Of a stretch of 64,000 nt of DNA, positions 8,513 through 37,242 are shown one piece after another; position 1 is the stretch's first letter; the number at the start of each line of letters is the position of its first letter. The translations under genes were made by a program, and so were the position numbers. Origin of the DNA: Alphaproteobacteria bacterium (lineage in GTDB: Bacteria; Pseudomonadota; Alphaproteobacteria; UBA828); assembly GCA_965220745.1 (NCBI GenBank), contig CBDCQT010000005.1, positions 32,001-96,000 of the forward strand, in the 5' to 3' direction. Below the pieces are notes generated by a model. The model saw only the letters and a list, made by a program, of their open reading frames with translations, did no database searches and was not told the origin of the DNA.

Positions 8513-8546
8513 TGACCTGCCCCCGTCGACTGGTCCAGGTCGAATG

Positions 8547-9365
8547 TTAGTGCATCGCGGGTTCCTCGGCCAAGCTGGGTGGCCGGCGGAGCGTAGCGGA
8601 GCCGGGCGGCCAGCTTGGCATGATGATCGTCTCCGGGGCCGGCGGCCGGTATCCCAGGCTGCCGTGTGGGCGGATCGCGTTGTAATGGCACCGCCACGAT
8701 TCGATGAGAACCTGGGCTTCCTTCAGGGTGTAGAAGATCTCCCCGTTCAGGAGCTCGTCGCGCAGCCGCGCATTGAAGCTCTCGATGTAGCCGTTCTCCC
8801 AGGGTGAGCCCGGCTCGATGAAGGCGGTGCGGGCGCTGACCGCAGCGATCCACCGCCTGACGGCCTCGGCGACGAACTCCGGACCGTTGTCGGAACGGAT
8901 CCAGGTCGGAATGCCGCGCAGGATGAACAGGTCGGTCAGCACATCGATGACGTCGATCGAGGAAAGCCTCCTGCGCACCCGGATGACCAGGCTCTCGCGG
9001 GTGAACTCGTCCAGGACGTTGAGCATGCGGAAGGCCCTGCCGTCATACGTCCGGTGATGGACGAAGTCGTAGGACCAGACGTGATCCGCCCTCTCGGCGC
9101 GCAGCCGGATGCAGGAGCCGTCATTGAGCCAAAGCCGGCCCCGCTTCGGTTGCTTGCCGGGCACCTTCAGCCCCTCGCGCCGCCACAAGCGCTCGATCCG
9201 CTTGTCGTTGACCTGCCAGCCGGCATCGCGAAGCAGGGCCGCGATGCGGCGATAGCCGTAACGGCCGTACTGGCGGGCCAGCTCGATCATGTACGCGACC
9301 AGGCGGTCCTCGTCGTCGCGGCCGCGCGGGATGCGGCGCTGGGTCGAGCGGTGCTGCCCCAGCAC
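8547..9365 (-). CDS. IS3 transposase OrfB (DDE), probably expressed by -1 frameshift from OrfA
   Basis: YGYRRI, WSYDF, IRSDNGPEF and ENGYIESFN motifs; G-run plus AAAC at the end of orfA. Confidence 0.92.
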   Translation of the reverse strand: MLGQHRSTQRRIPRGRDDEDRLVAYMIELARQYGRYGYRRIAALLRDAGWQVNDKRIERLWRREGLKVPGKQPKRGRLWLNDGSCIRLRAERADHVWSYDFVHHRTYDGRAFRMLNVLDEFTRESLVIRVRRRLSSIDVIDVLTDLFILRGIPTWIRSDNGPEFVAEAVRRWIAAVSARTAFIEPGSPWENGYIESFNARLRDELLNGEIFYTLKEAQVLIESWRCHYNAIRPHGSLGYRPPAPETIIMPSWPPGSATLRRPPSLAEEPAMH

Positions 9366-9439
9366 CCGGCAAGCGCGGCGTTCCGAGACCCCGAGCCGGT
9401 CACAGACATGATCGATGCACTGGCGCCGGCGCGAGGGGC

Positions 9440-9718
9440 TTAGAAGTTTCCCCCTGCGGCCTCTTTGAGAATCTGCTTGTCCAGCGTCAGATCGGAGACC
9501 GCACGGCGCAGCCGCTCGTTCTCCTTCTCGAGCTCCTTCAAACGGCGGAGCTGATCGCCGCTCATCCCGGCATACTCCTTGCGCCAGCGGTAGAAGGTAA
9601 CCTCGCTGATCCCAAGCTCGCGGATCGCGTCCGCCATCGACATGCCCTGGCCGTTCAGAACCTCAGCCCGCCGCAGCAGGCTCACGATCTCCTCGGGCTT
9701 GTAACGCTTCCTTGCCAT
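9440..9718 (-). CDS. IS3 transposase OrfA
   Basis: MARKRYKPEEI HTH plus LKELEKENERLRR zipper. Confidence 0.92.
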   Translation of the reverse strand: MARKRYKPEEIVSLLRRAEVLNGQGMSMADAIRELGISEVTFYRWRKEYAGMSGDQLRRLKELEKENERLRRAVSDLTLDKQILKEAAGGNF

Positions 9719-10095: not shown

Positions 10096-11370
10096 CTAAT
10101 AGCCGAGACCCTGAGACATCTGGGCATAGCTGGTGAGAGGGACCGCGCACATCCGATTCCAGTCCGCCTTGTCGATGACGGGCCGATTTAACAGATCGAT
10201 CATATCATCGAATTTGCTGAGCGCGGCACAGCCCACCACCTCAGGCGCCGCTGCCTTGCGGTGTTGCGACCAGGCTCGGTCGCGGGCGTGGCGCCAAAAT
10301 GCGCTGTCGTACGTCGAGCCACAGGAATAGTGCCAACCGACGAACAAGCCGTAACAAAGCATGTTGTTGATGAGAAACCGATTGACCACCGGCGCGTCGC
10401 GCTCAAGATGCTCGACCGCGCGGTTCAGACGTATATGGAGAACCATCCCAATTTGCAACTGGGCGGATACGATCGCCGTTGCTTCGAGAGGCTCCATAAA
10501 GGCCGCAGCATTGCCGATGCGCGCCACCGCACCGTCGAAGATCCGACGGTGGACGAAATTGGGGAACGGAATGACGGCGCGCTGCTCGAACTCGGATACG
10601 CCATCGGCCTCAAGAAACGCGTCAAAGTCCGATTCGACGTCGGTTTGGCTGGAGACATTGCGGTTGAAGATGTACCCGTAGGATGTGTGCACGGTTAGCG
10701 GAATGACGAATACCCAACCATGCGGACGGGCAACCGCACGGGTATACGTATGCTGCAGAACCGGCCGGTCCTGTTCTTCCTCGATGATTGCCGGGCAGCG
10801 GCGGATGATGGCCGTATTGGTGGGGACGAAGGAAATGTCGATGTGGCGCTCGGGCTGGAGTTCCTTGGGAAAGCCGCGGGCATCGAAGACCAGGTCATAG
10901 CGTTCCGGCGCCAGGCCCTCGAGTTCCACTTGGGCACCGCCGTCCACCCTGGCGATGTCGAGTACTTTAGCGTCGATGTGGCGCGCGCGCGTGCTTTCGT
11001 GCAGCAGCTCCCCCATCAGGTCGGCGGAGAGGTGGTAGGCGTAGGAGACCTGCTGCGGCGTGAAGTAGTGCGTGAAGTCTCGATTGCGCCGGCCCCATCC
11101 CTCGAACGCGACGCCGTACTTGCGTGTTCCCTTCAGGCGCTGCTGGACGGTTTCGTGAGGCAGGTTCGTCAGTTTCTGCAATTCCTGAACGAGGCTCGGC
11201 CAGCTGCCTTCGCCGACGCCGATAACCGGGATGCGCGAATCATAAATGTGGTGGAGCTCGTGGTCGCCGTCGGGGAGAAGACTCGTCACGCGGGCAGCCG
11301 CCAGTGACCCTGCGGTTCCCCGCCCGATAACCGCGATCTTCCGCAGAGATTTAGTGCCCGGCTGTATCAT
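10096..11370 (-). CDS. Flavin-dependent tryptophan-halogenase-family enzyme, likely peptidyl brominase (SrpI-like)
   Basis: IGRGTAG, VGEGS, catalytic Lys in GTRKYGVAFEGW, GWVFVIPL and FMEPLEATAI; clustered with a precursor ending in Trp. Confidence 0.88.
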   Translation of the reverse strand: MIQPGTKSLRKIAVIGRGTAGSLAAARVTSLLPDGDHELHHIYDSRIPVIGVGEGSWPSLVQELQKLTNLPHETVQQRLKGTRKYGVAFEGWGRRNRDFTHYFTPQQVSYAYHLSADLMGELLHESTRARHIDAKVLDIARVDGGAQVELEGLAPERYDLVFDARGFPKELQPERHIDISFVPTNTAIIRRCPAIIEEEQDRPVLQHTYTRAVARPHGWVFVIPLTVHTSYGYIFNRNVSSQTDVESDFDAFLEADGVSEFEQRAVIPFPNFVHRRIFDGAVARIGNAAAFMEPLEATAIVSAQLQIGMVLHIRLNRAVEHLERDAPVVNRFLINNMLCYGLFVGWHYSCGSTYDSAFWRHARDRAWSQHRKAAAPEVVGCAALSKFDDMIDLLNRPVIDKADWNRMCAVPLTSYAQMSQGLGY

Positions 11371-14608: not shown

Positions 14609-16819
14609 ATGCTGCGACGCGCGTCAAAGAGGGCTGGGGACAAGGCCGACTCGGACTTCGCGAAACGAAGGGTAACCACGCCCATTCTGTTGCAGATGCA
14701 CGCATCGGAATGTGGGGCCGCCTGCCTCGGCAGCATATTGGCCTACTTCGGTCGCTGGGTGCCACTGACCGAACTTCGCGAAAAATGCGAGGTGAGCCGA
14801 GACGGCAGTAGTGCCGCGAGCATCTTGCGCGCATCCAGGCACTACGGTCTCGAGTGCAATGGCCTCAGCTTACGCGCCGAGCAACTGAAGAAGCTGGAAT
14901 TGCCTCTGATCCTGTTCTGGCAATTCAGTCATTTCGTTGTCTTCGAAGGGTTCGATGGCCGCCATTACCATCTCAATGACCCGTCCATGGGGCGGCGCAG
15001 GCTCTCCGCTGAGGAATTCGAGAAGGATTACAGCGGCATCGCGCTGAGGTTCAAGCGCGGCGCCGATTTCAGCCCCGGCGGCAGGCAGCCCAACCTGTTC
15101 AGGCAACTGAGCGCCTCGCTCGTCGACTCATGGAGCATGCTCACCGGCGTGGTCGCCTGCGGATTCATGTTGACGCTGCTGGCACTGATCGTTCCCGCGT
15201 CTCTCGGTGTGTTCGTGGACGAAGTTCTGGAAAATCACGGGAGCTGGGGCGGATTGGTGGCAGCCCTGCTGGGCGGCGGTGCGCTGGTCTACATCCTGTC
15301 CCTTCTCAGGCACCGGTTCCTAAAGCGGCTTGCCGTCCGGATTTCGGTGATCGGCTACAGCCGGAGCCTGTCGCGGCTGCTGCGATTGCCCGTGGAGTTC
15401 TTCGAGCACAGGCTGGTCGGCGACCTGACCGATCGAGTCTCGTCCGTCGACAGAATAGCGAAGAACCTGACGGACCAGTTTCTCGTGCTCATCATAGACA
15501 TGGCAATGAGCGCCGTGCTGCTCATCGCGATGTTCGCCTACGACGTCGTGCTCACGCTGATCGTGCTGTTGCTGGCGATCGTGCACGGATTGCTTGCGCA
15601 TGGTCTCAACGCGCTCCGGGCTGTTCGAAGCCAGGCGATGAGGCGCGAGCAGGGATTGCTGATCGGCGTGGGCATGCAGATGTTGAGTCATGCCGAGAAC
15701 CTGCGCATGACGGGCGCGGACGACCGCTTCTTCTCGCGCTGGAGCGGTCAACAGGCGCGCGAATTGCATGCGCGCCAGCTTTATTCCGAGCTGGGCTCCG
15801 TCAATACCGCGCTGCCGGGCCTCGTTGCCGTGCTGCGCGCAGCGGCCATCCTGGGCCTCGGGGGCAGCATGGTCATGGCCGGAGACATGACCCTGGGAAC
15901 GCTGGTCGGGTTCTATATCCTGGCAGAGATGTTTCTGGCGCCTGTCGGGCGCTTCCTGGAGTTTGCCGACAGACGCAAGGCGCTCGAAACCGACCTGCAA
16001 CGACTGGATGACATATCCAAAGCCGCACAAGATCCAGTCATCAGCCGCCGAAGTGAGGAATCGGAGTCGATCTCCACGTTCAACGGCCGGCTCCAGCTTG
16101 CAGGCCATCTCGAACTGCGAAACGTCACGTTCGGTTTCAACAAGAGCCGGCCGCCTCTGCTCAAGGACTTCAACCTCGTGCTGAAGCCGGGGCAGCGGGT
16201 TGCCATCGTCGGCCCCAGCGGTTCCGGCAAGTCGACGCTCGCGCGTCTCGTTTCGGGCATCTGTCAGCCCTGGTCGGGCGAAGTGCTGTTCGACGGCCAT
16301 CTTCGGGAGGAGATTCCGGAGGACGTGCTGCGGCGGTCCATTTCCATGGTGGATCAGGAGGTCGTGCTCTTTTCCGCGTCACTGCGGGACAACATCACAT
16401 TGTGGAACCCGGCCGTTCCGGACGAAGCCATCGTCGTCGCGACGCGGGATGCCCAGATCCACGACGAGATCCTGCTCAGGCCGCAGGGATACGCGACCCC
16501 CGTCGAGGAAGGCGGGGTGAATTTCAGCGGCGGCCAGCGGCAGCGGCTGGAAATCGCCCGTGCGCTGGTGGGCAACCCGACGGTAATCATTCTGGACGAG
16601 GCGACCAGCGCCCTCGACGCCGCGACGGAGGAACATGTCGACGACGCCTTGCGGCGCCGCGGCGTCACCTGCCTGATCGTGGCGCACCGGCTGAGCACCG
16701 TGCGGGATTGCGACGAGATCATCGTGCTCGACAAGGGCGCAGAGGTGCAGCGCGGAACGCACGACGCGCTGATCGCGGACAGGGACGGCGCGTACTACAA
16801 GCTGATCATGTCAGGCTGA
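14609..16819 (+). CDS. NHLP bacteriocin export ABC transporter (C39 peptidase/permease/ATPase)
   Basis: Q...ECGAACL, HFVV and LNDP peptidase residues; GPSGSGKST, FSGGQRQR and ILDEATS. Confidence 0.93.
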   Translation: MLRRASKRAGDKADSDFAKRRVTTPILLQMHASECGAACLGSILAYFGRWVPLTELREKCEVSRDGSSAASILRASRHYGLECNGLSLRAEQLKKLELPLILFWQFSHFVVFEGFDGRHYHLNDPSMGRRRLSAEEFEKDYSGIALRFKRGADFSPGGRQPNLFRQLSASLVDSWSMLTGVVACGFMLTLLALIVPASLGVFVDEVLENHGSWGGLVAALLGGGALVYILSLLRHRFLKRLAVRISVIGYSRSLSRLLRLPVEFFEHRLVGDLTDRVSSVDRIAKNLTDQFLVLIIDMAMSAVLLIAMFAYDVVLTLIVLLLAIVHGLLAHGLNALRAVRSQAMRREQGLLIGVGMQMLSHAENLRMTGADDRFFSRWSGQQARELHARQLYSELGSVNTALPGLVAVLRAAAILGLGGSMVMAGDMTLGTLVGFYILAEMFLAPVGRFLEFADRRKALETDLQRLDDISKAAQDPVISRRSEESESISTFNGRLQLAGHLELRNVTFGFNKSRPPLLKDFNLVLKPGQRVAIVGPSGSGKSTLARLVSGICQPWSGEVLFDGHLREEIPEDVLRRSISMVDQEVVLFSASLRDNITLWNPAVPDEAIVVATRDAQIHDEILLRPQGYATPVEEGGVNFSGGQRQRLEIARALVGNPTVIILDEATSALDAATEEHVDDALRRRGVTCLIVAHRLSTVRDCDEIIVLDKGAEVQRGTHDALIADRDGAYYKLIMSG

Positions 16820-19263: not shown

Positions 19264-21648
19264 GTGGACACGCGCGACATGGCAAGGGAGCCGTTCGCAA
19301 CGCGGTTTGCGAAGCGGGTGCTAGGCGCCCGCTGGATCGTCATCGTGGCGTCGGTGCTGGTAGTTGCGCTCGCGGCGATGGGCGTTACGCAGCTCGAGTT
19401 CTCCGCCAACTACCGGATCTTCTTCGACGAGGACAATCCGCAGCTTCTGGGGCTGGAAGCGCTGGAGAACACCTATGGGAAGAACGAGAACGTCGTCTTT
19501 CTGATCGTTCCCGACGATGGCGACGCCACGTCCGAAGACGCGCTCACGGCCGCCGCCTGGCTCACCAAGGCCGCCTGGAACACGCCGTTTTCGCGGCGCG
19601 TCGATTCGCTCGCCAATTTTCAGTACACGACCGCCGACGGCGACGATCTGTACGTGCGGGACCTGGTCGATCTGCAGGAGCTGTCGGACGCCGAGGCGCG
19701 CGCGCGAATCCGCGACATCGCCCTGTCCGACCCGCGTATCGCCGGCAGCATTCTGGGTCTGAACGGCGATGTCAGCGTCGTCAACGTCACCGTCGAGCTG
19801 CCGGAAGACGGCCTGCTGGAGGCTGTGGCCGAGGTTGCCGAATTCGCCAGATCGCTTGCTGCGGAGGCAGAAGAACGATTTCCCGGCATGGACCTCCGCG
19901 TCGTCGGCACGGCCATGGTCAACCAGACGTTCCTGGAAGCCTCGGTCAGCAGCCAGATGATGTTTCTGCCGGCGAGCCTGCTGCTCATGGCCGTGATCCT
20001 TGGCATCCTCACTCGCAGCTGGACGGGCGTTGTGGGAACCGGGATCGTCATCGTCTTTTCCATTCTCGTCTCGGTCGGCTTGGGCGTATGGCTCGGTCTG
20101 CCCTTTTCTCCGCCCGTAACCCCGGCGCCGACCATCGTGCTGATGATCGTCGTGGCGAACTGCGTGCACCTGCTGGTGGCCTTGCAGCAGCGTCTTCGCG
20201 CCGGGGATTCCAAGCGCGATGCCATTGTCGAAGCCGTGAGGCTCAACCTGCATCCGGTGTTCCTGGCGAGCCTCACGACGACGCTCGGATTCCTGAGCAT
20301 GAACTTTTCCGAAGTGCCGCCCTACCGCGATCTCGGCAACTTCGTGGCTATCGGCATCGCGGCCTCCTTCATTCTCTCCGTTACGTTCATGCCGGCCGTG
20401 CTCTCGCTTCTCCCGCTGCGTGCGCCGAAGGACCGCCGGCTTCTGCCGGCCCTGCTCTCGCTTCTTCCGTTTCCTGCCGCGAAGGAGCGCCGGCTCCGCC
20501 TGCCGCACACGAACGTCCTGGCGGACTCCGTGCTCCGCCACAGGAAGGCGCTGTTCCTGGGGTGGGTGGTGTTCGTGCTGGCAATGGCTGCGGCCATTCC
20601 GCGCAACGAGCTCAACGATGTCCTGGTTCATTTCTTCGACAAAGGCGTCGAGTTTCGCCAGGACACCGATTTCATGGACGAGCACCTGAGCGGCAATACC
20701 CTGCTCGAATACTCGCTGGAAGCGCATGCCGAGGGCGGCGCGACCGATCCGCTTTTCCTCGCCGACGTCTCGAATTTCGCCGAGTGGTACCGTGCGCAGG
20801 CGCCGGTCCGTGACGTGGCGGTCATCACCGATACCTTCCGGCAGCTCAACAAGAGCATGCACGGCGACGACCCGGCGGCCTACCGGCTTCCGGAAAGCCA
20901 GGAGCTGGTGGCGCAATACCTGCTGCTTTACGAGCTTTCGCTTCCGCAGGGTCTGGACGTGAACAACCAGATCGACAGATCCAGGTCCGCCACGCGCGTG
21001 TCGGTGTCGGCGGAGACGCTATCGTCGCAAGAGGTGCTCGACCTGAACGCGCACGCCGAGGCGTGGCTAAAGGAAAACGCGCCGCATGTCGCCAGCGTCA
21101 ACAGCACCGGCCCCGCGGCGCTGTTCGCCTACATCGGGCAGCGCAACATCCGCGCCATGTTGATCGGGACGATGGTGGTGCTCCTGGCCATTTCCGCCAT
21201 TCTCCTCTTCGCCTTCCGATCGCTCCGGCTGGGCCTGATCAGCATCGTTCCCAATCTGGTTCCCGCCGCGCTGGGCTTCGGCGTCTGGGGATTGGCGGTC
21301 GGGCAGGTGGGACTCTCGCTCTCCGTCGTGGTGGCCATGACCGTAGGCATTGTCGTGGACGATACGGTGCACTTTCTCAGCAAGTACCGACGCGCGCGGC
21401 AGGAATTGGGCCAGAGCCCCGAAGAAGCGGTGCGTTACGCCTATGACACGGCCGGCCGGGCCGTGTTCACGACGACGATCGTGCTGGTGGCCGGTTTCCT
21501 GATATTCGCGGTCTCTCCGTTCGTCCCCACCGCGCAGGTCGGGATCCTGACCGCGACAATCATTGCCTTTGCGTTCATCGCCGACCTGACGCTGCTGCCG
21601 GTGCTGTTGACTGCGTTGGACCGGAAATCTGCGAAGCCGCGCGCCTGA
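19264..21648 (+). CDS. MMPL/RND-family transporter
   Basis: Two-repeat topology; ASLTTTLGFLS and GIVVDDTVHFL motifs. Confidence 0.9.
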   Translation: MDTRDMAREPFATRFAKRVLGARWIVIVASVLVVALAAMGVTQLEFSANYRIFFDEDNPQLLGLEALENTYGKNENVVFLIVPDDGDATSEDALTAAAWLTKAAWNTPFSRRVDSLANFQYTTADGDDLYVRDLVDLQELSDAEARARIRDIALSDPRIAGSILGLNGDVSVVNVTVELPEDGLLEAVAEVAEFARSLAAEAEERFPGMDLRVVGTAMVNQTFLEASVSSQMMFLPASLLLMAVILGILTRSWTGVVGTGIVIVFSILVSVGLGVWLGLPFSPPVTPAPTIVLMIVVANCVHLLVALQQRLRAGDSKRDAIVEAVRLNLHPVFLASLTTTLGFLSMNFSEVPPYRDLGNFVAIGIAASFILSVTFMPAVLSLLPLRAPKDRRLLPALLSLLPFPAAKERRLRLPHTNVLADSVLRHRKALFLGWVVFVLAMAAAIPRNELNDVLVHFFDKGVEFRQDTDFMDEHLSGNTLLEYSLEAHAEGGATDPLFLADVSNFAEWYRAQAPVRDVAVITDTFRQLNKSMHGDDPAAYRLPESQELVAQYLLLYELSLPQGLDVNNQIDRSRSATRVSVSAETLSSQEVLDLNAHAEAWLKENAPHVASVNSTGPAALFAYIGQRNIRAMLIGTMVVLLAISAILLFAFRSLRLGLISIVPNLVPAALGFGVWGLAVGQVGLSLSVVVAMTVGIVVDDTVHFLSKYRRARQELGQSPEEAVRYAYDTAGRAVFTTTIVLVAGFLIFAVSPFVPTAQVGILTATIIAFAFIADLTLLPVLLTALDRKSAKPRA
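20391..20497 (+). repeat. 54-bp in-frame tandem duplication inside the MMPL gene
   Basis: PAVLSLLPLRAPKDRRLL followed by PALLSLLPFPAAKERRLR; DNA period 54 (20391, 20445). Confidence 0.8.
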
Positions 21649-21938: not shown

Positions 21939-22190
21939 ATGAGAAGTGGCGATGAAATGCTGCAACACATTATCCAGAAGTCCTCTCTGGATTCGGACTT
22001 CAGGCAACAGCTTCTTGCAGACCCCAAGAGTACCATCAGCGAGGAATTGGGCGTCACGATACCCGAGTCGATGACCATCAAGATCCATGAGAGCGACATG
22101 CAGACGGTGCATCTGGCGTTGCCGCCGGATCCGAACATCACCGAAGAGCAGCTCGAAGCGATCTCAGCGGGACTCTGCTGCTGCTGGTAA
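21939..22190 (+). CDS. NHLP/proteusin RiPP precursor, 78-aa leader plus core LCCCW (SrpE-like)
   Basis: DSDFRQQLLADPK...HLALPP...ITEEQLEAISAG|LCCCW; GGGAGG RBS. Confidence 0.95.
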   Translation: MRSGDEMLQHIIQKSSLDSDFRQQLLADPKSTISEELGVTIPESMTIKIHESDMQTVHLALPPDPNITEEQLEAISAGLCCCW

Positions 22191-22299
22191 ATCCTGGGGC
22201 GAAATGACCCCAATCTGCAATTGTGCAAAGCTTAATCATGCCTAGCCCGTTCCCGGCCGGAGATGTGCTAAGGCATGGTACGTCCGATTGGGGCTGATT

Positions 22300-23418
22300 T
22301 TAGGGGGAGACCGCTCCGGAAAGCACCATGAACACGTAGGCCTTCGCTTTTCGCAGCCGATCTCCAGATATGACCAGCTTTATGTGGTGAATGCCACGCA
22401 GCAACACATAACGGCCTGACTTCGCAAAGAGCATTGACGGTGTCGAAACCCAATCGGCAAGCGCTGCAAGCTTCTCCGGGACGACGATGTCCTCATGGCT
22501 CAAGGCTTCCAGGAACGGGTCCCAATCGGTCAGGCCGTCGAGCCAATAGCGCGAATCTTTGGTGTATCTCTGCTTGACGATAAGCGTGAGGCCGAGCGTC
22601 GGGCCGACACCCTCTTCGTGCACGTCAATATTCGCCCCGGCCCTGACAATGTTCGCGCGTTCCCTGAAGCGTGCGATCACGGATTCCACGGCCGAGGTCT
22701 CGCCCGGCCAGCCCGCGTCTTCGAGATAGGAACACGTTTCCCGCCCCGACTTGAATCCCATAATCGCGAGCCGGATTGCCCGTGAGCGGGACGGAAACAC
22801 GCCGAACGAATCCATGCGCGTGTCGTCCGGCTGCGCCAGGTAAGCGCGCTTGACGTTCTCCCGCGTGGCGGCGTTCGCCTCCCAGCCCAGGCAGGAAACG
22901 AGCGCGTCAACCACCGTGGCGGCATCGTCCGCCTGACCGCAGCCGCCCATGATCGGGCGCTCGCCGGGCCGCAGGAACAGCCCCGGCAGCGAACGTTCAC
23001 CGCCCTGCGCCGAGCCGATGTCGTATTCCAGCATCAGCTTGCGGCCGACGATGTCGCGCAGCGGCGAGTCTTCGGCATCCATCTGACCGAACAGCCGTGT
23101 GATTGCACCCGCGGTCTCATCCGTCTTGTCGGCGAGGGCGCGCTCCCGGAAGAACGCGGCAGGCCGGGTGCCGCTCGCGAGCGAGACGCCGAAATCCGCC
23201 TGGGGTTCGCGTTCATGCAGCGGAAGCTCGAAGCCGAAGGGAAGGGCCCCCATCGTGATGGGAAGCGTGCCGGCGCAATCGAGCACGCGCTGCCATTCCC
23301 GATCTCCCACGAGAGTCGTCGAAACCCTGTTGCGGAAGTGCCCGAGCAGATCGCCCATGGTGCCGCCCTCTTCGGCGAGACGGTCCTGAGTGAGCGTGAC
23401 TGCCTCGTCAATGTCCAT
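22300..23418 (-). CDS. Hypothetical RiPP-cluster protein, possibly prenyltransferase (ABBA/LynF-like) fold
   Basis: Directly downstream of YcaO; FGFELPL, MLEYD, AIRL and HHIKL...KAKAY motifs. The fold assignment is inference. Confidence 0.5.
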   Translation of the reverse strand: MDIDEAVTLTQDRLAEEGGTMGDLLGHFRNRVSTTLVGDREWQRVLDCAGTLPITMGALPFGFELPLHEREPQADFGVSLASGTRPAAFFRERALADKTDETAGAITRLFGQMDAEDSPLRDIVGRKLMLEYDIGSAQGGERSLPGLFLRPGERPIMGGCGQADDAATVVDALVSCLGWEANAATRENVKRAYLAQPDDTRMDSFGVFPSRSRAIRLAIMGFKSGRETCSYLEDAGWPGETSAVESVIARFRERANIVRAGANIDVHEEGVGPTLGLTLIVKQRYTKDSRYWLDGLTDWDPFLEALSHEDIVVPEKLAALADWVSTPSMLFAKSGRYVLLRGIHHIKLVISGDRLRKAKAYVFMVLSGAVSP

Positions 23419-23427
23419 CGTGTGTCC

Positions 23428-25746
23428 TCACGCAATCACGGGTGCGGGATTCAGGTCGGCTTCGGCGAGAGGACGCGGTTGGCGGCCCATGCCGACGGGC
23501 ACGTCGTAGAGGCGCCCCGGCGCAAATCGCGCCCAGAAGTGGCGCATGCCCGGCACGATGACCCGCGCCACGGGCATGCCGATGTCGGGCCGGGTCTGAT
23601 CCAGCACCAGGAACTCCATGCCCCTGGCTTCGACGAGCGCGCGGCACAGCTCCACATCGTCGCGCGTGTCCGTCGTCTCGATCGCCGGATAGTACGACGC
23701 CGTGCGGAGCGGCGCGTCGTCCGCCGGCGCCAGCCAGGAGCAATCGGCGAGCCGCGCGGTCTTCCACCACCGGAGTGCCAGCGGATCGTCGATCATGGGC
23801 CGGCCGTCTCCTTTGCCGGGGCGTGGCAGCCAGGTGAGGCACTGGTTCAACTCGCAGAGCGCACGGAGCGCCGCGAGCCGCGGGTCGGCGTGGGCGCCGG
23901 CGCCGTAGATGATGTCCTCGGTCCGGGCGTGCGTGCGGCGCGAGAGCGCGACGAACGCGGGAATGCCGATGTCCGACGTGACGTCGAGCAGCCAGAGCGC
24001 GCGCTCGTAGCGGGCGTATTGCTGCAGGGCGGAAGCGAGGTACGCGTCGTCGAAGCTGGCAAGATCGACCGCCGGCACCCGCAGCCGGTTGTACCACCAG
24101 ATGGCGAACGCATCGCGCTCGACCAGTTCGTAGAAGCCCTGGAGGATGGCCTCTTCCAGCGTGTTGCCCGCGGCGCAGCCGTTGGAATCGGCGATCAGGT
24201 CCGCGGGGCCGCGCTGCTCGGCCGCCATGCCGTAGAGCATCGAGGTCGGCAGGTAGCGATGCCGTTGCCGCGTGAGCGACCACACCGGCGTCCAGTCGCG
24301 CGCGGCGTCGGGGTCGAAGCGCGGAGGCACGATGTTGTACGGATGGCCCTTCGCGTTGATGCCCTTCGCGTTGTCGAGCTGAGCGTCGCTGAAGAGCTGC
24401 ACGTCGTTGGGATGGATCGCCTCGTCGCCCCCGCCGAACTCGACGAACCGCCTGCGGATGCAGATCTCGTCGCCATGACGGGCGCCCGAGTAGCGCTCGA
24501 CCGCCTCGCAAAGGGCGCTGACCTTCGACTGCTCCCGCGTGCTGCCCTTGCCCGCGCTCTTGCTGCGCAGGCTCCGCCTGAGCGAACTCAGGCTCCGGCT
24601 TCTCATGCCGAGATTGCTCCCGGCCCAGTAGACGTGCAGCCAGGGGTCGGTCTCATCGGTCGTGCGCGACAGCCAGGTCACGACCCCGCTGACCGGGCTC
24701 ACCAGGTGGCGGTACTTCGCGAGCGTGACCTCCGGCGCCACGGTGCGCGCGCCGCCGCTGTTGCGATGGGTCTTGGGGCTCGCTTTCAGAGCGAGCGGCA
24801 CCGGCGGGCGATCCGGCCGATGCAACGCGTCGTCGCTGCAGGCGAGGCACTGCGGCCGGCGCATCACGGGATGCTGCGCGCTTGCGAACGTGCCGACGTT
24901 CATCGTGATCGCGTGTTCGTGCAGGGGGGCCGCGTCGTCCAGCACCAGCCACTTGACGATCTCCGCCGCGATCAACCCGTAAAGCGCCTCCAGCACCGCG
25001 GGCTGAGCCGCGAACGGCTTGAAGGCAGCCTCCTCGCCGGCAACGCTGCGCAAGAAGCTGTGGACCTCCTGGTGGCCGCGCAGGCGGCTCGCCAGGCAGT
25101 CACAGCAGGGGCCTTGTCCGTCTGCGCGAAAGACGGGGCCGAACAGCACCTCCATGCCGCGCGGCCGCAGCAGTGTCCACGGCGCTTGCGCCTCGAGTTG
25201 GCGCCGGTTCACCTCAGCGAGGCGGGCGTCGAGATAGTCGTCGCAGACGACGACGGTGAGTGTGGGTTTGCCGGCCCCCGTGCTGACGCCGCTCTCTTGC
25301 AGATGCCGGACCAGGCGGCCGTCGTCGCCTTCGACCGCGATGCGCGATTCCGCGAGCCGCCGCTCGACCCAGCGCGGCGATGCGCCGAGCGACGACCAGT
25401 AGGCTGCCCGGCTCCGCTCCATGCCGTGATCGGCGGAGACGACGTAGCCCTTGGCGGCGAGCGCGGCAATGGTCCCAAGAACGTCCGCCGCGGCGTGGGC
25501 GCCCTCCAGTGCTGCGACGATCTCGTCCTGCGGGTGCCGGCCGTCAAGCAAGGGCAGCAGATCGCAGTGGAGCGCGTCGTGCAGCAGGGTATTGAACGAT
25601 TCCGAAACCAGCAGCGTCTGCCGCTCGCCGATGTCGCGGAACTGCAGGTGCGGGGCGAGCGCGGGACGCGTGACGGCGCCCCGGTCCGCAGGCGTCGTTC
25701 TGGTCAGTATCCCGTGCGGGGGCTGCGTGTCCGTCTGCGCTGGCAT
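23428..25746 (-). CDS. Fused RRE/E1-like/YcaO cyclodehydratase (SrpC-like)
   Basis: GPVF...CCDC, RRPQCLAC, SAGKG, CEAVERYS, SNGCAAGNTLEEAILQGFYELVERDA and PGMRHFWARF. Confidence 0.94.
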   Translation of the reverse strand: MPAQTDTQPPHGILTRTTPADRGAVTRPALAPHLQFRDIGERQTLLVSESFNTLLHDALHCDLLPLLDGRHPQDEIVAALEGAHAAADVLGTIAALAAKGYVVSADHGMERSRAAYWSSLGASPRWVERRLAESRIAVEGDDGRLVRHLQESGVSTGAGKPTLTVVVCDDYLDARLAEVNRRQLEAQAPWTLLRPRGMEVLFGPVFRADGQGPCCDCLASRLRGHQEVHSFLRSVAGEEAAFKPFAAQPAVLEALYGLIAAEIVKWLVLDDAAPLHEHAITMNVGTFASAQHPVMRRPQCLACSDDALHRPDRPPVPLALKASPKTHRNSGGARTVAPEVTLAKYRHLVSPVSGVVTWLSRTTDETDPWLHVYWAGSNLGMRSRSLSSLRRSLRSKSAGKGSTREQSKVSALCEAVERYSGARHGDEICIRRRFVEFGGGDEAIHPNDVQLFSDAQLDNAKGINAKGHPYNIVPPRFDPDAARDWTPVWSLTRQRHRYLPTSMLYGMAAEQRGPADLIADSNGCAAGNTLEEAILQGFYELVERDAFAIWWYNRLRVPAVDLASFDDAYLASALQQYARYERALWLLDVTSDIGIPAFVALSRRTHARTEDIIYGAGAHADPRLAALRALCELNQCLTWLPRPGKGDGRPMIDDPLALRWWKTARLADCSWLAPADDAPLRTASYYPAIETTDTRDDVELCRALVEARGMEFLVLDQTRPDIGMPVARVIVPGMRHFWARFAPGRLYDVPVGMGRQPRPLAEADLNPAPVIA

Positions 25747-25778
25747 TCAGGTCTTCCGCGCCGGATCGGCCGGCACCT

Positions 25779-28175
25779 TCACGCGCACGAACGAAGCGAG
25801 TCGATCCGGGCGGCTGCGCGGGATGCGGTGTCGGTGACCGCCGAGGTCAGCGCGTCGAAATCCTCGTGCCCGCACGCGCTCGCAACGAGAGACCTGACCT
25901 TGGGCCGCGCCTCAGCCGCGTCGAATCCTTCCTCGCCGATGAGGCGCGTGATGCCCTGCAAGTCCCGCCACATGGCCGCAGCCTGCGCCAGGTCCTCGGC
26001 GCCAGCGGCATCGAGCACCGCCGCAGCGCTCGGCGCCGGGTCGTCGAGGGCGGCGTCGGCATTCGTCAACTGCAGGACTCGCGCGGCACGCTCGACATCC
26101 TCCAGCCCGCCACGCATGCGGGCGTAGTTGGAGACGCCCGTTGCGGCCGGGTTTTCGCGCCGCGCACGAAGCTGGGCGATCAGGGACTCGTCCGCAGCGC
26201 ACGCGGCCAGCGCTTCGCCCCGAGCCTCGCCGAAGCGGCGGCCGATATCGGCATCGCCGCACTCGAACACGCAGCGTGCCCTGGTGAGGACGGGAATTCC
26301 GTCGGGAGAACGTTCCCGGCAATGCTCGGCCAGCTCGGACAGCGGCAGCGCAGAAAGGGCCTGCGAGCGGGGCGGAGCCGGGGAGAACAACAGACTGTCG
26401 CGCGCCAGGGCTGTCAGAGACTTTGCGAACTGCCGACACAGACGTTCATTCTCGCCGATCTTCCGGCCGTCGTGGACAAACAGCATGTCAATTGCAACGC
26501 CCGGATAAACGTCCCGGCTTGCGAGATCGCCGAGGAATACGGCAGCGATCCCGCCGTCCTGCAGCGGTCCGGCGAGGTCGACACGGTCCGCAGCCACGGC
26601 GGCCAGCGCGGCGGAAATTGATGCTTCGGCAAGATTAGAGAGCGCGGTCTTCGCCTCGGCCGGGGACAGGTTTCCGCGCACGACGTGCATGCCGATCTGG
26701 AACGCCTTGTCGTTCGACCAGTTCCGCACGATCTCGGCGGCCTCCTTCGCATCGGCCGTTGGCAACTCGGAGACCCGGTCCTTCATCTCCGGAACGCCCA
26801 TTTCGTGCGTCCAATAGAGTCGTGCGAGCCCACGCCGCGCGATCGTTTCGTATTCTTGATCCGGTCCGAATCCTTTCGGCAGGTCGAGATCGGTGAATTC
26901 CCGGTGTTGCAGGTTATCGAGGAGCTCGGAATTGCGTTCGATCCATGTGGCGAGCCGCGGGGCTGCGCCGAAGATTTCTACGATTGCCTCGAAGGCGTCA
27001 GGGCGCGCTGCGGAAAGACGACTGTCGTAGGCGCTCCAGTCATCGATCTGCGGGTAGAAATGCGCGCGCCATTGATCCACCAATGGATCCATCTTCGCGA
27101 ACCACCGCTTCGGCCGCAGAACGATATTCATCATGTCGGCGTAGGTTCCTGGCAAGACCGGGGATTCATCGGAGCCGAGGGCTTGGAGCAGGGGATAGTG
27201 GCGAGACGCTGCCGCGTGATGATCCGCATGGCGCTGCATGTTGAAGAACATCCAGTTGCTGAACTTCCAGTCGGCGCTCCACGAATGGCGCGGCAATACC
27301 TTTTCCCATCGGCCGTTCGGCAGACGGACCCGGCGAAGGCCGTAGTGCTGAAAGTAATTGCTGATCTTCATGGAAAAGACGCAGCAGAGCCCGAGGAAGG
27401 CGAAGACCGGCACCGCCCAGCCGCCGCTCATCCAGAACACCAGTCCGTACCAGCACGCGAGGGCGATGCCGTAGCGCCAGAACGGATTGCTGTAATGCCA
27501 CACGGGCAAACGGCGCCGTGCCAGGCGTTCGCCGACGACTTGCCAGGAATTGGTGAGGTTGCTTACGACTTCCCTGGGGAAATATCTCCAGAAACTTTCC
27601 CCCTTGGGCGCGGACCCAACGTCGTGTGGCGTGCCGACCTTGGCATGGTGAATATAGACATGCTCCGTGGCGTATTGCGGATAGGAGGCAGAGGCGAGGA
27701 GAAACTCCCCGAGCCGTCTTTCCCAGGTCGCGCGCCGATGAACCAGCTCGTGACCGACCACGAATACGGCCTGTGCTTCCATGGTCAACATGATCGCGAG
27801 CAGCACGTCTTCCCATAGGGCGAACTGATCCGCGACAAGGATTTGCCACATGGCGAAGATCAGCGTCGCCGGCCAGAGAAACGCCCAGATCCAGACCGGC
27901 AGATTGTGCCAGAAGAGGCGCCGCTCCGACGTTATCGCCGGGTCCATGTTGCGCCCGTCGACACCGAGCGCCCGGTCAAGCGGGCCCGAAACACCCATGA
28001 AGACGAAGGCCGGCAACAACCACCAGCTGCCATAGATCGCCGCAATAACGATCAGCGGGAATATGCCCAGTGGCAGATAATGCGGCAGGGCGTTGAGAAA
28101 CGACGGCACAATGTGCCGCGTGACGCCAGCCTTGTTCGGGGCCATGTCACCGCCAACGGCCGTGTCTTGCGGCAT
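25779..28175 (-). CDS. AlkB-like membrane diiron monooxygenase/desaturase fused to a degenerate GlnE-like domain
   Basis: His boxes HELVH, EHVYIHH, NYFQHYG and QRHADHH. The C-terminus has GlnE-like LSNLAEA, LGDLASRD...IDMLFV, LTRAR and GGLEDVE. Confidence 0.75.
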   Translation of the reverse strand: MPQDTAVGGDMAPNKAGVTRHIVPSFLNALPHYLPLGIFPLIVIAAIYGSWWLLPAFVFMGVSGPLDRALGVDGRNMDPAITSERRLFWHNLPVWIWAFLWPATLIFAMWQILVADQFALWEDVLLAIMLTMEAQAVFVVGHELVHRRATWERRLGEFLLASASYPQYATEHVYIHHAKVGTPHDVGSAPKGESFWRYFPREVVSNLTNSWQVVGERLARRRLPVWHYSNPFWRYGIALACWYGLVFWMSGGWAVPVFAFLGLCCVFSMKISNYFQHYGLRRVRLPNGRWEKVLPRHSWSADWKFSNWMFFNMQRHADHHAAASRHYPLLQALGSDESPVLPGTYADMMNIVLRPKRWFAKMDPLVDQWRAHFYPQIDDWSAYDSRLSAARPDAFEAIVEIFGAAPRLATWIERNSELLDNLQHREFTDLDLPKGFGPDQEYETIARRGLARLYWTHEMGVPEMKDRVSELPTADAKEAAEIVRNWSNDKAFQIGMHVVRGNLSPAEAKTALSNLAEASISAALAAVAADRVDLAGPLQDGGIAAVFLGDLASRDVYPGVAIDMLFVHDGRKIGENERLCRQFAKSLTALARDSLLFSPAPPRSQALSALPLSELAEHCRERSPDGIPVLTRARCVFECGDADIGRRFGEARGEALAACAADESLIAQLRARRENPAATGVSNYARMRGGLEDVERAARVLQLTNADAALDDPAPSAAAVLDAAGAEDLAQAAAMWRDLQGITRLIGEEGFDAAEARPKVRSLVASACGHEDFDALTSAVTDTASRAAARIDSLRSCA

Positions 28176-28252
28176 GGCAGCTTCTCTAATGGATTAGAGA
28201 TAGATCGTAGTGAAATCCATGTTACCACCGAGTAACGCAGTCTGTAAATCCT

Positions 28253-29554
28253 TCAGGACTCCAATAATTCTACAAGCCGCTCCAGAGCTTCGATACAAAA
28301 GGCAGAGGTCACGGCTTCGGAGCCATGCCCAATTTGTCCTACCGCTCCCCACTTCAATGATTGGTCGCCAAACGCGAGTAGCTCCGGCCAGCTACCGTCC
28401 TCACGTTGCGTACTTGTGAACTCTTCCACCAGGCGTTTCGCGTCGAGCCTTTCAAGGTGTCCGACATTGCATAGCGCCGAGACGGCCTGAGCGGTCTTGA
28501 GGATATTACCATAGCCTCCCTCTTCGTCGCGCAAGTTCAGGATGCGCTCTGCGAGGATCGGGCGCGAGCGTTCGAGGGCGGGCGCCGCGCGGATCATGGC
28601 GCGGGCGATTGCATAACAGATCGCGGCCGTGTCGGGATACCACTTGGAGGAGCCTTCGAGTCTGTCTTCAGCAACCAATTTTTCCAGCCACCGTTGGGCA
28701 TCCCTCGTCTCGGGGCGGTCGCCGAGATAGGCGATGACGTTCGCATTGACGACGGGGTCGGCTTCGATGCGAAAGGGCGCCACGACGTCGGGTTCGCCTG
28801 CCGCCAGCACCCAGGTCGTGAACAGCCCTTTCTCGTCGCGGTTCGCCAATATCGCCGGAACGTTTCGTCCCAGAAGAATCCAGGGATGGGTCCCGATGAC
28901 AAGCGAGCAGAGTGTCGTGCTATCGAGGTCCTGAGGCAGATGGCGGTAGTAGCGCCACAGCCCCGGATACTCGATGGCATCGGCGAGATACGCCCTTGTG
29001 GCGGTGCAAATGGCCTTGGCCCGCGCGTCGCCGCAACGTTCCAGGGCAAGCACGCAGAGGCCGGAAACGAAGGCAGGTCTTTCGAAATGCCGGGGTATAT
29101 CCGGGTCGGCGATGTTGAACCGGATGCAGTGCCAGGCGCCGTTTTCGTCAATTGCGGTTTCCAGGAAATCGAGACCGCGGCGGATGCTCTCTCTGCCCGC
29201 TCTTGCAAGTGCCGCGGAGGTAGCAGCGTCCTCTCGGGTTTCCGCCTGTTCAGGGGCGGGGGGGCGACGCAGCGGCGCGGGGTCGTAGAGCGTCTTGCGA
29301 AGGAACGCGAGCGATGCTGCGCCGGTTCTTGCCGCCTCCCGTTCTTCCTCACTGAGTTTGCTGCGCGGTGGAAGCACCAGATGTATCGCGGTATCGGTTT
29401 CTTCGTGCACGTGAATCTCATGATCCTCGGCCAGAGTTATGCCGAGTTCCCTTTCGATAGTTTCCTTGGGCTTTACGAGAAGACGCGCGCGAAAATCGGC
29501 ATCTTCTCCAGCCCTTGATAGGAGGAGTGCTTCCGCGTCAATAGGTTTCCTCAC
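28253..29554 (-). CDS. NHLP leader domain fused to a class II terpene cyclase/prenyltransferase-repeat (alpha6/alpha6) domain
   Basis: Residues 1-78 align without gaps to the precursor leader; then DENGAW, DLDST, DPVVNAN, QREDGSW and GSEAVTSA. GGAGG RBS. Confidence 0.75.
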   Translation of the reverse strand: MRKPIDAEALLLSRAGEDADFRARLLVKPKETIERELGITLAEDHEIHVHEETDTAIHLVLPPRSKLSEEEREAARTGAASLAFLRKTLYDPAPLRRPPAPEQAETREDAATSAALARAGRESIRRGLDFLETAIDENGAWHCIRFNIADPDIPRHFERPAFVSGLCVLALERCGDARAKAICTATRAYLADAIEYPGLWRYYRHLPQDLDSTTLCSLVIGTHPWILLGRNVPAILANRDEKGLFTTWVLAAGEPDVVAPFRIEADPVVNANVIAYLGDRPETRDAQRWLEKLVAEDRLEGSSKWYPDTAAICYAIARAMIRAAPALERSRPILAERILNLRDEEGGYGNILKTAQAVSALCNVGHLERLDAKRLVEEFTSTQREDGSWPELLAFGDQSLKWGAVGQIGHGSEAVTSAFCIEALERLVELLES

Positions 29555-35837: not shown

Positions 35838-36013
35838 AAACTGAAGACAGCCCTGGGTAGCGTTCCGAAAGAATTGTTGATGAGTGCCCTGACTCTCTCA
35901 TATATGCATTTCAGGCATTTTATCCATAAGACTAACGCATAGTGAATCGCTGCATGTCTCAGCCGAGAACGGAGACGGGTGACCTGCCCCCGTCGACTGG
36001 TCCAGGTCGAATG

Positions 36014-36832
36014 TTAGTGCATCGCGGGTTCCTCGGCCAAGCTGGGTGGCCGGCGGAGCGTAGCGGAGCCGGGCGGCCAGCTTGGCATGATGATCGTCTC
36101 CGGGGCCGGCGGCCGGTATCCCAGGCTGCCGTGTGGGCGGATCGCGTTGTAATGGCACCGCCACGATTCGATGAGAACCTGGGCTTCCTTCAGGGTGTAG
36201 AAGATCTCCCCGTTCAGGAGCTCGTCGCGCAGCCGCGCATTGAAGCTCTCGATGTAGCCGTTCTCCCAGGGTGAGCCCGGCTCGATGAAGGCGGTGCGGG
36301 CGCTGACCGCAGCGATCCACCGCCTGACGGCCTCGGCGACGAACTCCGGACCGTTGTCGGAACGGATCCAGGTCGGAATGCCGCGCAGGATGAACAGGTC
36401 GGTCAGCACATCGATGACGTCGATCGAGGAAAGCCTCCTGCGCACCCGGATGACCAGGCTCTCGCGGGTGAACTCGTCCAGGACGTTGAGCATGCGGAAG
36501 GCCCTGCCGTCATACGTCCGGTGATGGACGAAGTCGTAGGACCAGACGTGATCCGCCCTCTCGGCGCGCAGCCGGATGCAGGAGCCGTCATTGAGCCAAA
36601 GCCGGCCCCGCTTCGGTTGCTTGCCGGGCACCTTCAGCCCCTCGCGCCGCCACAAGCGCTCGATCCGCTTGTCGTTGACCTGCCAGCCGGCATCGCGAAG
36701 CAGGGCCGCGATGCGGCGATAGCCGTAACGGCCGTACTGGCGGGCCAGCTCGATCATGTACGCGACCAGGCGGTCCTCGTCGTCGCGGCCGCGCGGGATG
36801 CGGCGCTGGGTCGAGCGGTGCTGCCCCAGCAC
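36014..36832 (-). CDS. IS3 transposase OrfB
   Basis: Same translation as 8547-9365. Confidence 0.92.
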   Translation of the reverse strand: MLGQHRSTQRRIPRGRDDEDRLVAYMIELARQYGRYGYRRIAALLRDAGWQVNDKRIERLWRREGLKVPGKQPKRGRLWLNDGSCIRLRAERADHVWSYDFVHHRTYDGRAFRMLNVLDEFTRESLVIRVRRRLSSIDVIDVLTDLFILRGIPTWIRSDNGPEFVAEAVRRWIAAVSARTAFIEPGSPWENGYIESFNARLRDELLNGEIFYTLKEAQVLIESWRCHYNAIRPHGSLGYRPPAPETIIMPSWPPGSATLRRPPSLAEEPAMH

Positions 36833-36906
36833 CCGGCAAGCGCGGCGTTCCGAGACCCCGAGCCGGTCACAGACATGATCGATGCACTGGCGCCGGCGCG
36901 AGGGGC

Positions 36907-37185
36907 TTAGAAGTTTCCCCCTGCGGCCTCTTTGAGAATCTGCTTGTCCAGCGTCAGATCGGAGACCGCACGGCGCAGCCGCTCGTTCTCCTTCTCGAGC
37001 TCCTTCAAACGGCGGAGCTGATCGCCGCTCATCCCGGCATACTCCTTGCGCCAGCGGTAGAAGGTAACCTCGCTGATCCCAAGCTCGCGGATCGCGTCCG
37101 CCATCGACATGCCCTGGCCGTTCAGAACCTCAGCCCGCCGCAGCAGGCTCACGATCTCCTCGGGCTTGTAACGCTTCCTTGCCAT
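36907..37185 (-). CDS. IS3 transposase OrfA
   Basis: Same translation as 9440-9718. Confidence 0.92.
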   Translation of the reverse strand: MARKRYKPEEIVSLLRRAEVLNGQGMSMADAIRELGISEVTFYRWRKEYAGMSGDQLRRLKELEKENERLRRAVSDLTLDKQILKEAAGGNF

Positions 37186-37242
37186 CGTCGGTCCTCCTCT
37201 TTCCATAACCTAAGGGTGGACCAACTCGATGGGGGAGGATCA

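Follow-up and report, generated by a model that had tools for sequence, protein, structure and literature searches.

A conserved fusion of an AlkB-type diiron domain and a degenerate GlnE half in the srp peptide cluster of sponge-associated bacteria

The window analysed here is a 64,000-nucleotide stretch of an alphaproteobacterial genome (assembly GCA_965220745.1, contig CBDCQT010000005.1, positions 32,001 to 96,000), and the gene under study is an open reading frame (ORF) for 798 amino acids with an ATG start at 25779..28175 on the reverse strand. Its product, according to domain, structure and homology matches, combines a diiron membrane domain of the AlkB type with a pseudo-nucleotidyltransferase derived from GlnE, and the gene belongs to the core of srp, a published gene cluster for a peptide that is made on the ribosome and modified after translation (RiPP). 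The reading that we favour, with a probability of about 45%, is that the modified peptide carries a lipophilic part, probably derived from a prenyl group, which the fusion enzyme oxidises, and that the dead GlnE half serves as a cytoplasmic docking or regulatory module.

Results

The fusion is conserved across many bacterial lineages

A word-indexed protein search with the fusion protein gave 930 matches, the best 120 of which are nearly all 784-824 residues long and 74-90% identical to the query. A scan of species-representative genomes found 236 fusion loci, and 80 of these, at 56-90% identity, were kept; unless stated otherwise, locus counts below refer to this set of 80, residue counts for the close family refer to 81 fusion sequences, and alignment A1 comprises 36 fusion sequences at 57-90% identity. 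An exhaustive search of representatives clustered at 50% identity returned 3227 matches at E ≤ 0.001, and among the best 150 are 13 more full-length fusion clusters at 30-53% identity. These 13 constitute the distant set, and alignment A3 holds 12 sequences of distant fusions. When metagenomes were scanned with the distant-fusion alignment, 76 of the 80 loci kept from that scan were plain AlkB, and the only fusions were L087, L088, L089 and L101.

Together, the 236 loci and the distant clusters down to 30% identity rule out an assembly artefact or a chance fusion, and the architecture is seen well beyond this assembly. DNA of 65% G+C does yield long ORFs by chance, and an antisense ORF of 970 residues is listed in the window; for the fusion gene a chance ORF is excluded by the E-values of its matches and by its conservation in 80 loci.

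The 80 loci lie in metagenome-assembled genomes of Alpha- and Gammaproteobacteria, of Terriglobia, Bryobacterales and Vicinamibacterales (three acidobacterial orders), and of Binatia, Latescibacterota and Thermodesulfobacteriota/'Deltaproteobacteria'. The stretch itself is present in sponge and coral metagenome runs. Within the genus of the window, a close homologue was found in six of 20 other species genomes (68-96% identity, one partial) and was absent from the other 14, the completeness of which is 62-100%, so that the cluster is patchy in the genus.

The N-terminal domain retains the AlkB histidine site

Residues 1-385 (27021..28175, reverse strand) make up the AlkB-type domain. A match to the Pfam family FA_desaturase (PF00487) covers residues 121-345 (97.5 bits, cut-off 29.7; E = 1.4e-27). 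In a phmmer search of PDB sequences, residues 47-396 aligned with 8f6t_A, an alkane monooxygenase of known structure (E = 1.5e-47), and 8sbb_A was a further match (E = 4.7e-38). The four histidine motifs are in register with those of 8f6t_A, HELVHR with HELGHK, EHVYIHH with EHNRGHH, NYFQHYGL with NYIEHYGL and QRHADHH with QRHSDHH, and they supply nine histidines (H142, H146, H172, H176, H177, H277, H316, H319 and H320). The ORF list and this alignment thus confirm the initial annotation, which had described one ORF of 798 residues with all AlkB histidine boxes and the variant motif NYFQHYG. Identity to genuine alkane monooxygenases is about 30-40%, and the histidine site is complete. All nine histidines are invariant in A1, each is kept in 78-80 of the 81 close-family sequences, and the nine iron-binding histidines are kept in all 12 sequences of A3. 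Judged from its sequence, the N-terminal domain, with six predicted helices, is a genuine diiron enzyme of the AlkB family in which the metal site has been kept.

The codon for Gln276 (27348..27350, reverse strand) lies in the third motif, where NYFQHYGL stands against NYIEHYGL, at the site of the Fe2-ligating Glu271 of Fontimonas thermophila AlkB (FtAlkB). The two structure papers on AlkB (PMC10113152 and PMC10110569, as far as their text is available) describe a diiron site of nine histidines and one carboxylate, Glu271, which directly precedes His272 of the HYG motif. In PMC10113152, Glu271 is modelled as an Fe2 ligand at 3.2 Å from the substrate methyl group and is proposed to be the proton donor for water release; in the accessible part of PMC10110569 the equivalent residue is E281, and stearoyl-CoA desaturase has just water at this place. 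Gln276 is found in 78 of the 79 close-family sequences that have a residue at the site and is invariant in A1, while the 13 distant clusters have Gln in ten cases and Glu in three (P0131, P0137 and P0138). On these alignments the sole carboxylate of the AlkB site is replaced by an amide in the fusion family, and the Glu-to-Gln change is frequent, not universal, across the wider family. The swap may alter reactivity, for example towards desaturation.

In the predicted structure the AlkB part contains long helices at residues 26-47, 51-70, 92-113, 120-145, 226-250 and 254-277, with a predicted local distance difference test score (pLDDT) of only about 50-80. In our own reading of the 8f6t_A alignment, with the offset of the PDB numbering allowed for, five of the six basic positions at which FtAlkB docks rubredoxin (listed in the available text of PMC10113152) are Arg or Lys in the fusion protein (R148, R153, R220, R289 and K292), and the sixth is Y174. 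In the same alignment the small residue V58 occupies the place of I54, the presumed chain-length gate of FtAlkB. No rubredoxin is encoded in the window, in line with the initial annotation, which held that no rubredoxin or ferredoxin is encoded here, and a genome-wide search for rubredoxins gave a single match, on contig 10. A second AlkB was not found in the same genome.

The C-terminal domain is a complete and catalytically dead GlnE half

Residues 386-798 (25782..27020, reverse strand) constitute a complete but catalytically degenerate GlnE half-module, as judged from homology and fold matches. With the Pfam family GlnE (PF03710) this domain reaches 25 bits, where 24 is the cut-off, and with the NCBIfam GlnE equivalog PRK14108 it reaches 69 bits, far under the cut-off of 724. 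BLASTP comparisons place residues 387-794 against the C-terminal half of L082, one of the genome's own GlnE paralogues, with 39% identity (E = 4e-58) in one case and 36% over residues 389-794 (E = 6e-60) in the other. The AlphaFold model of the C-domain has a pLDDT of 80-90, and the model from residue 370 or 374 to 798 superposes on the structures of Escherichia coli GlnE, 1v4a (Z = 30.3, 382 residues aligned) and 3k7d (Z = 28.9, 367 residues aligned); Foldseek was also run. The initial annotation was therefore right that the C-terminus is GlnE-like but put its length at about 350 residues, and the domain in fact spans about 410, the length of one whole GlnE half-module.

The catalytic stretch reads FLGDLASRDVYPGVAIDMLFVHD in the fusion protein against GMGKHGSRELTFDSDLDVVFLY in L083, the canonical GlnE of the same genome; E. 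coli GlnE (3k7d) served as a second canonical reference. The core of the stretch, the degenerate GK.G...SDLD motif at residues 549-563 (26487..26531, reverse strand), reads GDLASRDVYPGVAID where L083 has GKHGSRELTFDSDLD, so that the earlier reading of GDLA...VAID for GKLG...SDLD is exact, and the GlnE alignments agree that the motif is dead. In the close family the position of the first catalytic Asp holds Ala in 53 sequences, Glu in eight, Ser in six, Gly in four and Asp in three. The loss of the nucleotidyl-transfer residues appears from the alignments to be ancient and general, because none of the 13 distant fusion clusters keeps the motif Lys and only one keeps the first Asp. Invariant positions of A1 are dense in residues 391-520, and in six of the 80 loci the fusion takes a shorter form of 669-687 residues from which about the last 130 are missing. 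The C-domain represents an entire adenylyltransferase half of GlnE in which the transfer Lys and Asp disappeared long ago and which is still under selection. A complex prediction for the full fusion protein with the SrpE-like precursor (see below) gave a score of 0.00 in a run without controls, a result that counts neither for nor against an interaction.

The genome holds two GlnE paralogues, L082 (G000:C13:1037217-1041533) and L083 (G000:C13:539492-543538), both of which score above the PRK14108 cut-off. The motifs of L083 are canonical. In L082, the nearest relative of the fusion C-domain, the N-terminal motif is intact (GKLGAGEL..SSDVD) and the C-terminal adenylyltransferase motif reads SPLD against SDLD.

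The fusion gene belongs to the srp cluster

The window encodes an SrpE-like precursor of the nitrile hydratase leader peptide (NHLP) family at 21939..22190 on the forward strand, 83 residues long, which scores 70.8 bits against TIGR03793 and ends in ...EAISAGLCCCW. Directly downstream of the fusion gene, at 23428..25746 on the reverse strand, lies a gene for an SrpC-like YcaO cyclodehydratase with an E1-like, leader-binding N-terminal part (Pfam, NCBIfam), and an SrpI-like protein of the tryptophan halogenase family is encoded at 10096..11370 on the reverse strand (Trp_halogenase, E = 2.1e-42). According to the available text of PMC10286304 and PMC10858898, LCCCW is the core of SrpE, which is the substrate of the YcaO enzyme SrpC and of the Trp-6-brominase SrpI. 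In these two papers and in PMC9426513 and bioRxiv 10.1101/2023.06.09.544420, again as far as available, srp denotes the 'sponge-derived RiPP proteusin' cluster, which is spread over many bacterial phyla in sponges. Membership of srp is marked here by the LCCCW precursor, the YcaO protein, the Trp halogenase and the spread across phyla in sponges. The founding study of the cluster is reportedly that of Nguyen et al. in the Journal of the American Chemical Society in 2021. The accessible portions of the citing srp literature, which do not extend to the annotation of Nguyen et al. (2021), give no function for the fusion gene, and clusters of this kind contain 'several genes of unknown function' according to the available text of PMC11832590. 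No relevant paper came up in full-text literature searches that paired AlkB-type enzymes with RiPPs or YcaO.

The fusion gene keeps the same company in most loci. In 72 of the 73 loci where the sequence runs on for 2.5 kb or more past the fusion gene, YcaO is the gene directly downstream, and a gene for an NHLP-cyclase-like protein (433 residues in the window) lies directly upstream in 64 of the 74 loci with room. A gene for a 372-residue protein with a prenyltransferase fold is present in 69 of the 80 loci and a precursor-like ORF in 70; in 58 loci a precursor ending in LCCCW was found by tblastn. A C39-peptidase ABC exporter gene (14609..16819, forward strand) is syntenic in 63 loci, and its product would cleave the leader after the AG of ...SAG/LCCCW. 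An MMPL/RND-type transporter gene (19264..21648, forward strand) occurs in 38 loci, and a halogenase gene within the 8-kb flanks of the fusion gene in 35. The window also holds a gene for a LolA-like protein. No azoline dehydrogenase of the nitroreductase type was seen among those ORFs of the window that were scanned with Pfam. The alpha subunit of a Rieske-type ring-hydroxylating oxygenase (29965-31146, reverse strand) was considered as a partner and rejected, as it was matched in just two of the 80 loci, once at 29% identity.

Some loci depart from this arrangement. L061, at 61% identity, has the fusion, YcaO and MMPL genes and no prenyltransferase-fold or cyclase-like gene nearby. In the clade of L089 and L101 (52-53% identity) there is no YcaO gene within 8 kb and a gene for an RND pump adjoins the fusion gene; ABC transporter genes related to those of srp lie nearby in L089, and a polyprenyl synthetase gene directly follows the fusion gene in L101.

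Further observations concern the precursors and transporters. In the gammaproteobacterial loci L046-L051, which carry the shortened fusion of 669-687 residues, a second NHLP precursor ending in GMCCCGI stands beside the LCCCW one (for example L046:16284-16529); L065 has a second precursor ending in GFSMCF, and in L013 the ending is LCCSW. A second ABC-type gene of the window (16402-19182, forward strand) matches in Pfam with a membrane domain only, whereas its homologues in L088 and L089 also have the ATPase domain; perhaps the window copy has no nucleotide-binding domain, or perhaps its ORF was miscalled.

In the metatranscriptome, RNA library X20, contigs cover 26 of the 30 bins of 21900-29600, and one piece of 217 nt lies inside the fusion gene with one mismatch. 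These contigs are a weak hint of transcription, since DNA may be present among the contigs of such a library, from which neither level nor strand can be read. Other metagenome contigs join positions 23217 and 25842 (runs X20 and X3) or 23419 and 28279 (X3), with 24-29 other letters between them. The joins may represent forms of the cluster in the community without YcaO, or without both YcaO and the fusion gene; they are single contigs at 90% likeness, and other organisms are a possible source.

Two neighbouring genes look isoprenoid-handling

The 372-residue protein (orf372; 22300..23418, reverse strand) has no match in Pfam or NCBIfam, and its family profile gave 0 matches to PDB sequences at E ≤ 10. 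Prenyltransferase families came up as leads from the atlas. Its structural model (pLDDT 90; predicted template modelling score, pTM, 0.89) is predicted to adopt the fold of an ABBA aromatic prenyltransferase. The model gave 85 PDB fold matches at E ≤ 0.001 with template modelling (TM) scores of 0.45-0.55, and every one among the matches listed is an ABBA prenyltransferase, including EpzP, DMATS1, 6-DMATS, NphB/Orf2, CloQ, TleC, IptA and the peptide prenyltransferase LimF.

Directly upstream of the fusion gene, at 28253..29554 on the reverse strand, is the gene for the 433-residue protein, in which an NHLP leader-like domain (TIGR03793, 49.9 bits; cut-off 50.9) is followed by a domain that resembles class II terpene cyclases and has the invariant sequence D209-L-D211-S-T. 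The family profile of the latter domain matches the bacterial drimenol synthase 9mhs_B (E = 3.9e-5), squalene-hopene/tetraprenyl-curcumene cyclase, SHC and GGTase-beta. DxD(T/D) is the catalytic acid motif of class II enzymes, and QDLDST of the 433-residue protein aligns on DDLDTT of 9mhs_B; the second match, 9m7d_A, has DDLNTT. It is unusual for a leader to be joined to a domain as large as an enzyme, and the leader-like domain may dock the cyclase to the machinery that binds SrpE. Two conserved srp genes therefore look isoprenoid-handling, a context that comes from the present analysis; in the available text of the citing srp literature there is no mention of a prenyl step.

Insertion sequences bracket the cluster

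Two copies of an insertion sequence (IS) that are 99-100% identical and directly oriented lie 27467 bp apart at the two flanks of the srp cluster, the left one at 8507..9651, with an rve transposase gene at 8547-9365, and the right one at 35974..37118. They bracket the whole cluster in the manner of a composite transposon. A third, partial copy of 300 nt (33076-33375) is located beside an integrase gene, and phage-type integrases are encoded at 2144-3316 and 33537-34793. Just past the right IS copy, the ORF at 37216-38088 (forward strand) encodes a vitamin K-dependent gamma-carboxylase lumenal domain with an HTTM end and was possibly truncated by the IS insertion.

Discussion

The favoured model and the evidence that opposes it

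In the model that we favour, the AlkB-type domain would use O2 and electrons supplied in trans by a small redox protein of the rubredoxin type, and would hydroxylate or desaturate a hydrophobic part of the SrpE product during its maturation. This part would most likely be an isoprenoid group that the neighbouring ABBA-fold prenyltransferase attaches and the NHLP-tagged class II cyclase-like protein possibly cyclises. The pseudo-GlnE domain would be cytoplasmic, as is the C-terminus of AlkB, and would have no catalytic part, adenylylation included; its role would be to dock or to regulate, with the NHLP leader, a partner enzyme or a small ligand as its counterpart. The proposed prenyl step, which would supply the AlkB-type domain with its substrate, has a precedent in PalQ, which lipidates the C-terminal Trp of an NHLP precursor by prenylation (PMC10853753, available text). 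Other points in favour of the model are the ABBA fold of orf372, the alignment of the 433-residue protein with drimenol synthase, the MMPL and LolA-like export genes of the window, the polyprenyl synthetase of L101, the basic docking residues together with the one rubredoxin gene of the genome, and V58 at the presumed gate.

Several results weigh against this model. In the accessible text of PMC10286304 and PMC10858898, the srp modifications are thiazoline formation and Trp bromination only, with no prenyl group. The ABBA and cyclase assignments are made from fold matches and weak profile matches (TM 0.45-0.55; 26 bits), and the activities are predicted only. When the polyprenyl synthetase of L101 was used as the query, 0 of the 80 genome loci matched. 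In L055, L056, L061 and L064 the fusion and YcaO genes occur with no prenyltransferase-fold or cyclase-like gene in the fetched flanks, and loci of this kind mean that a peptide-directed role fits at least as well as an isoprenoid-directed one. Moreover, AlkB-like hydroxylation may be impaired or altered, because Gln276 removes the proposed Fe2 ligand and proton deliverer (PMC10113152, available text). Finally, because the pLDDT of the AlkB part is about 40-75, neither the substrate tunnel nor the domain interface is readable from the model.

A more ambitious version of the model, which we consider unlikely, would make the srp product a peptide-terpenoid hybrid and not a mere brominated tris-thiazoline pentapeptide. 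Prenylation of the C-terminal part by the ABBA-fold protein and cyclisation of the chain by the leader-tagged class II cyclase would be followed by oxidation by the fusion enzyme, with the pseudo-adenylyltransferase recruiting the leader-bound substrate and the Glu-to-Gln change retuning the chemistry; the fusion enzyme would then be the first AlkB-type membrane diiron oxygenase in RiPP maturation.

Alternative explanations

The main alternative, improbable in our view, is that the enzyme is a desaturase that turns the three thiazolines made by YcaO into thiazoles (-2 Da each), thereby replacing the absent azoline dehydrogenase that depends on flavin mononucleotide, while the GlnE relic holds the leader. 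The tightest association of the fusion gene is indeed with YcaO (72 of 73 loci) and persists without the prenyltransferase-fold and cyclase-like genes, as in L061; a nitroreductase-type dehydrogenase was not seen among the Pfam-scanned ORFs of the window, and srp products are termed 'azol(in)e' in the literature. We know of no membrane diiron enzyme that oxidises azolines, and this counts against such a role, as do the L089/L101 clade, which is devoid of YcaO within 8 kb, and the three distant fusion clusters in which Glu is kept. The loss of the carboxylate can be read in its favour, since stearoyl-CoA desaturase has water at that place (PMC10110569, in the part available) and Gln could thus favour desaturation; however, the AlkB site is described in the corresponding part of PMC10113152 as a tunnel, narrow and hydrophobic, with its mouth in the membrane, which is unlikely to admit a leader-bound backbone.

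Next in order, and somewhat more doubtful, is that the substrate is not a peptide but a membrane lipid or a free hydrocarbon or isoprenoid, used as a carrier, as a co-metabolite or in self-protection, ordinary alkane or alkyl hydroxylation included. The 30-40% identity to genuine alkane monooxygenases with a full histidine site would suit this, as would the lipid-type transport genes (MMPL/RND and LolA-like) beside the fusion gene and the context in L089 and L101, which consists of pumps and a polyprenyl synthetase with no peptide genes nearby. Against it stands the very tight synteny within a RiPP operon, between an NHLP-tagged gene and YcaO, where an alkane-degradation operon might have been found; there is also no other AlkB in the genome, and the invariant Gln separates the family from alkane-degrading AlkBs.

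A proposal of lower probability again concerns the C-domain and is compatible with any catalytic reading. The allosteric sites of E. coli GlnE respond to glutamine or PII, and a C-domain that keeps such sites could act as a sensor that couples the oxygenase to nitrogen status. The complete GlnE half-fold has been kept, and the most conserved stretch, residues 391-520, is on the linker or regulatory side of GlnE. In addition, the C-terminal motif is already degenerate (SPLD) in the nearest relative, L082, which suggests that the C-domain descends from a non-catalytic, possibly regulatory module. Yet residues 391-520 border directly on the AlkB domain and could be no more than an interdomain interface, and six of the 80 loci do without about the last 130 residues.

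That the whole protein is inert and holds the srp enzymes and the exporter together at the membrane as a scaffold is very improbable: one domain is certainly a pseudo-enzyme and the other has no Fe2 carboxylate, but nine histidines that are invariant over 57-90% identity and kept in 12 of 12 A3 sequences are hard to explain unless the metal site is in use.

Overall, the oxidation of a prenyl-derived part of the peptide remains our preferred reading. The architecture, the dead motif and the Glu-to-Gln change given in the initial annotation were right and its interpretation as a whole is partly supported; the check that it proposed, on whether fusion and Gln are conserved in homologues, gave a positive answer (236 loci; 78 of 79 sequences, and all of A1). 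It did not recognise the published srp cluster with its short LCCCW precursor, nor that Glu persists in part of the wider fusion family.

Significance

The srp cluster is among the few natural-product clusters common to sponge symbionts of many phyla, and it is highly transcribed according to the available text of bioRxiv 10.1101/2023.06.09.544420. In the accessible citing literature, functions are published for just two srp enzymes. The fusion gene is as conserved as those two, and its role would help to define the real srp product. If the isoprenoid reading is true, a membrane diiron oxygenase would be added to the RiPP toolbox, and a natural Glu-to-Gln variant would be at hand to probe the role proposed for the sole carboxylate of the AlkB site. 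The dead GlnE module neatly illustrates how one half of a housekeeping regulatory enzyme can be reused as a non-catalytic domain.

Comparison with known systems

The PalQ/PalX system resembles the proposed one in that an NHLP precursor with a conserved C-terminal Trp is lipidated (PMC10853753, as far as available). However, PalQ has an isoprenoid-synthase fold and not an ABBA fold, and its cluster is devoid of an AlkB-type enzyme, YcaO and a cyclase.

With GlnE (the adenylyltransferase structure AT, 3k7d; the removase structure AR, 1v4a; L082 and L083) the C-domain shares the full half-module fold and, in part, the RGGLxDxE-type stretch. Unlike GlnE, in which removase and transferase modules stand in tandem over about 950-1000 residues, the fusion protein has one module that is tethered to the membrane and has lost GK.G and SDLD, and the RLRPSG stretch is absent from it in the alignment.

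Known AlkB fusions carry a C-terminal rubredoxin or an N-terminal ferredoxin-reductase/ferredoxin (available text of PMC8918992), in agreement with the initial annotation, which held that AlkB is normally fused to rubredoxin or ferredoxin. The present protein is like them in having an extra domain joined to AlkB, at the C-terminus as in the rubredoxin class, and unlike them in that this domain has a nucleotidyltransferase fold with no metal-cluster motif seen and is not an electron carrier.

Among the AlkB enzymes themselves, FtAlkB and FtAlkBG of F. thermophila (8f6t and 8sbb) and AlkB of Pseudomonas putida GPo1 are alike with the fusion protein in the four motifs and nine histidines, in five of the six docking residues and, in a model of low confidence there, in long helices where transmembrane segments are expected. 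The fusion protein differs from AlkB in having Gln for Glu271, no fused or nearby rubredoxin, a GlnE relic at the C-terminus and a place in a RiPP operon and not in an alkane-degradation operon. As to the srp cluster, compared by way of the available text of the citing papers, nothing differs at the cluster level: the precursor core, the YcaO protein, the halogenase and the spread through sponge symbionts are the same.

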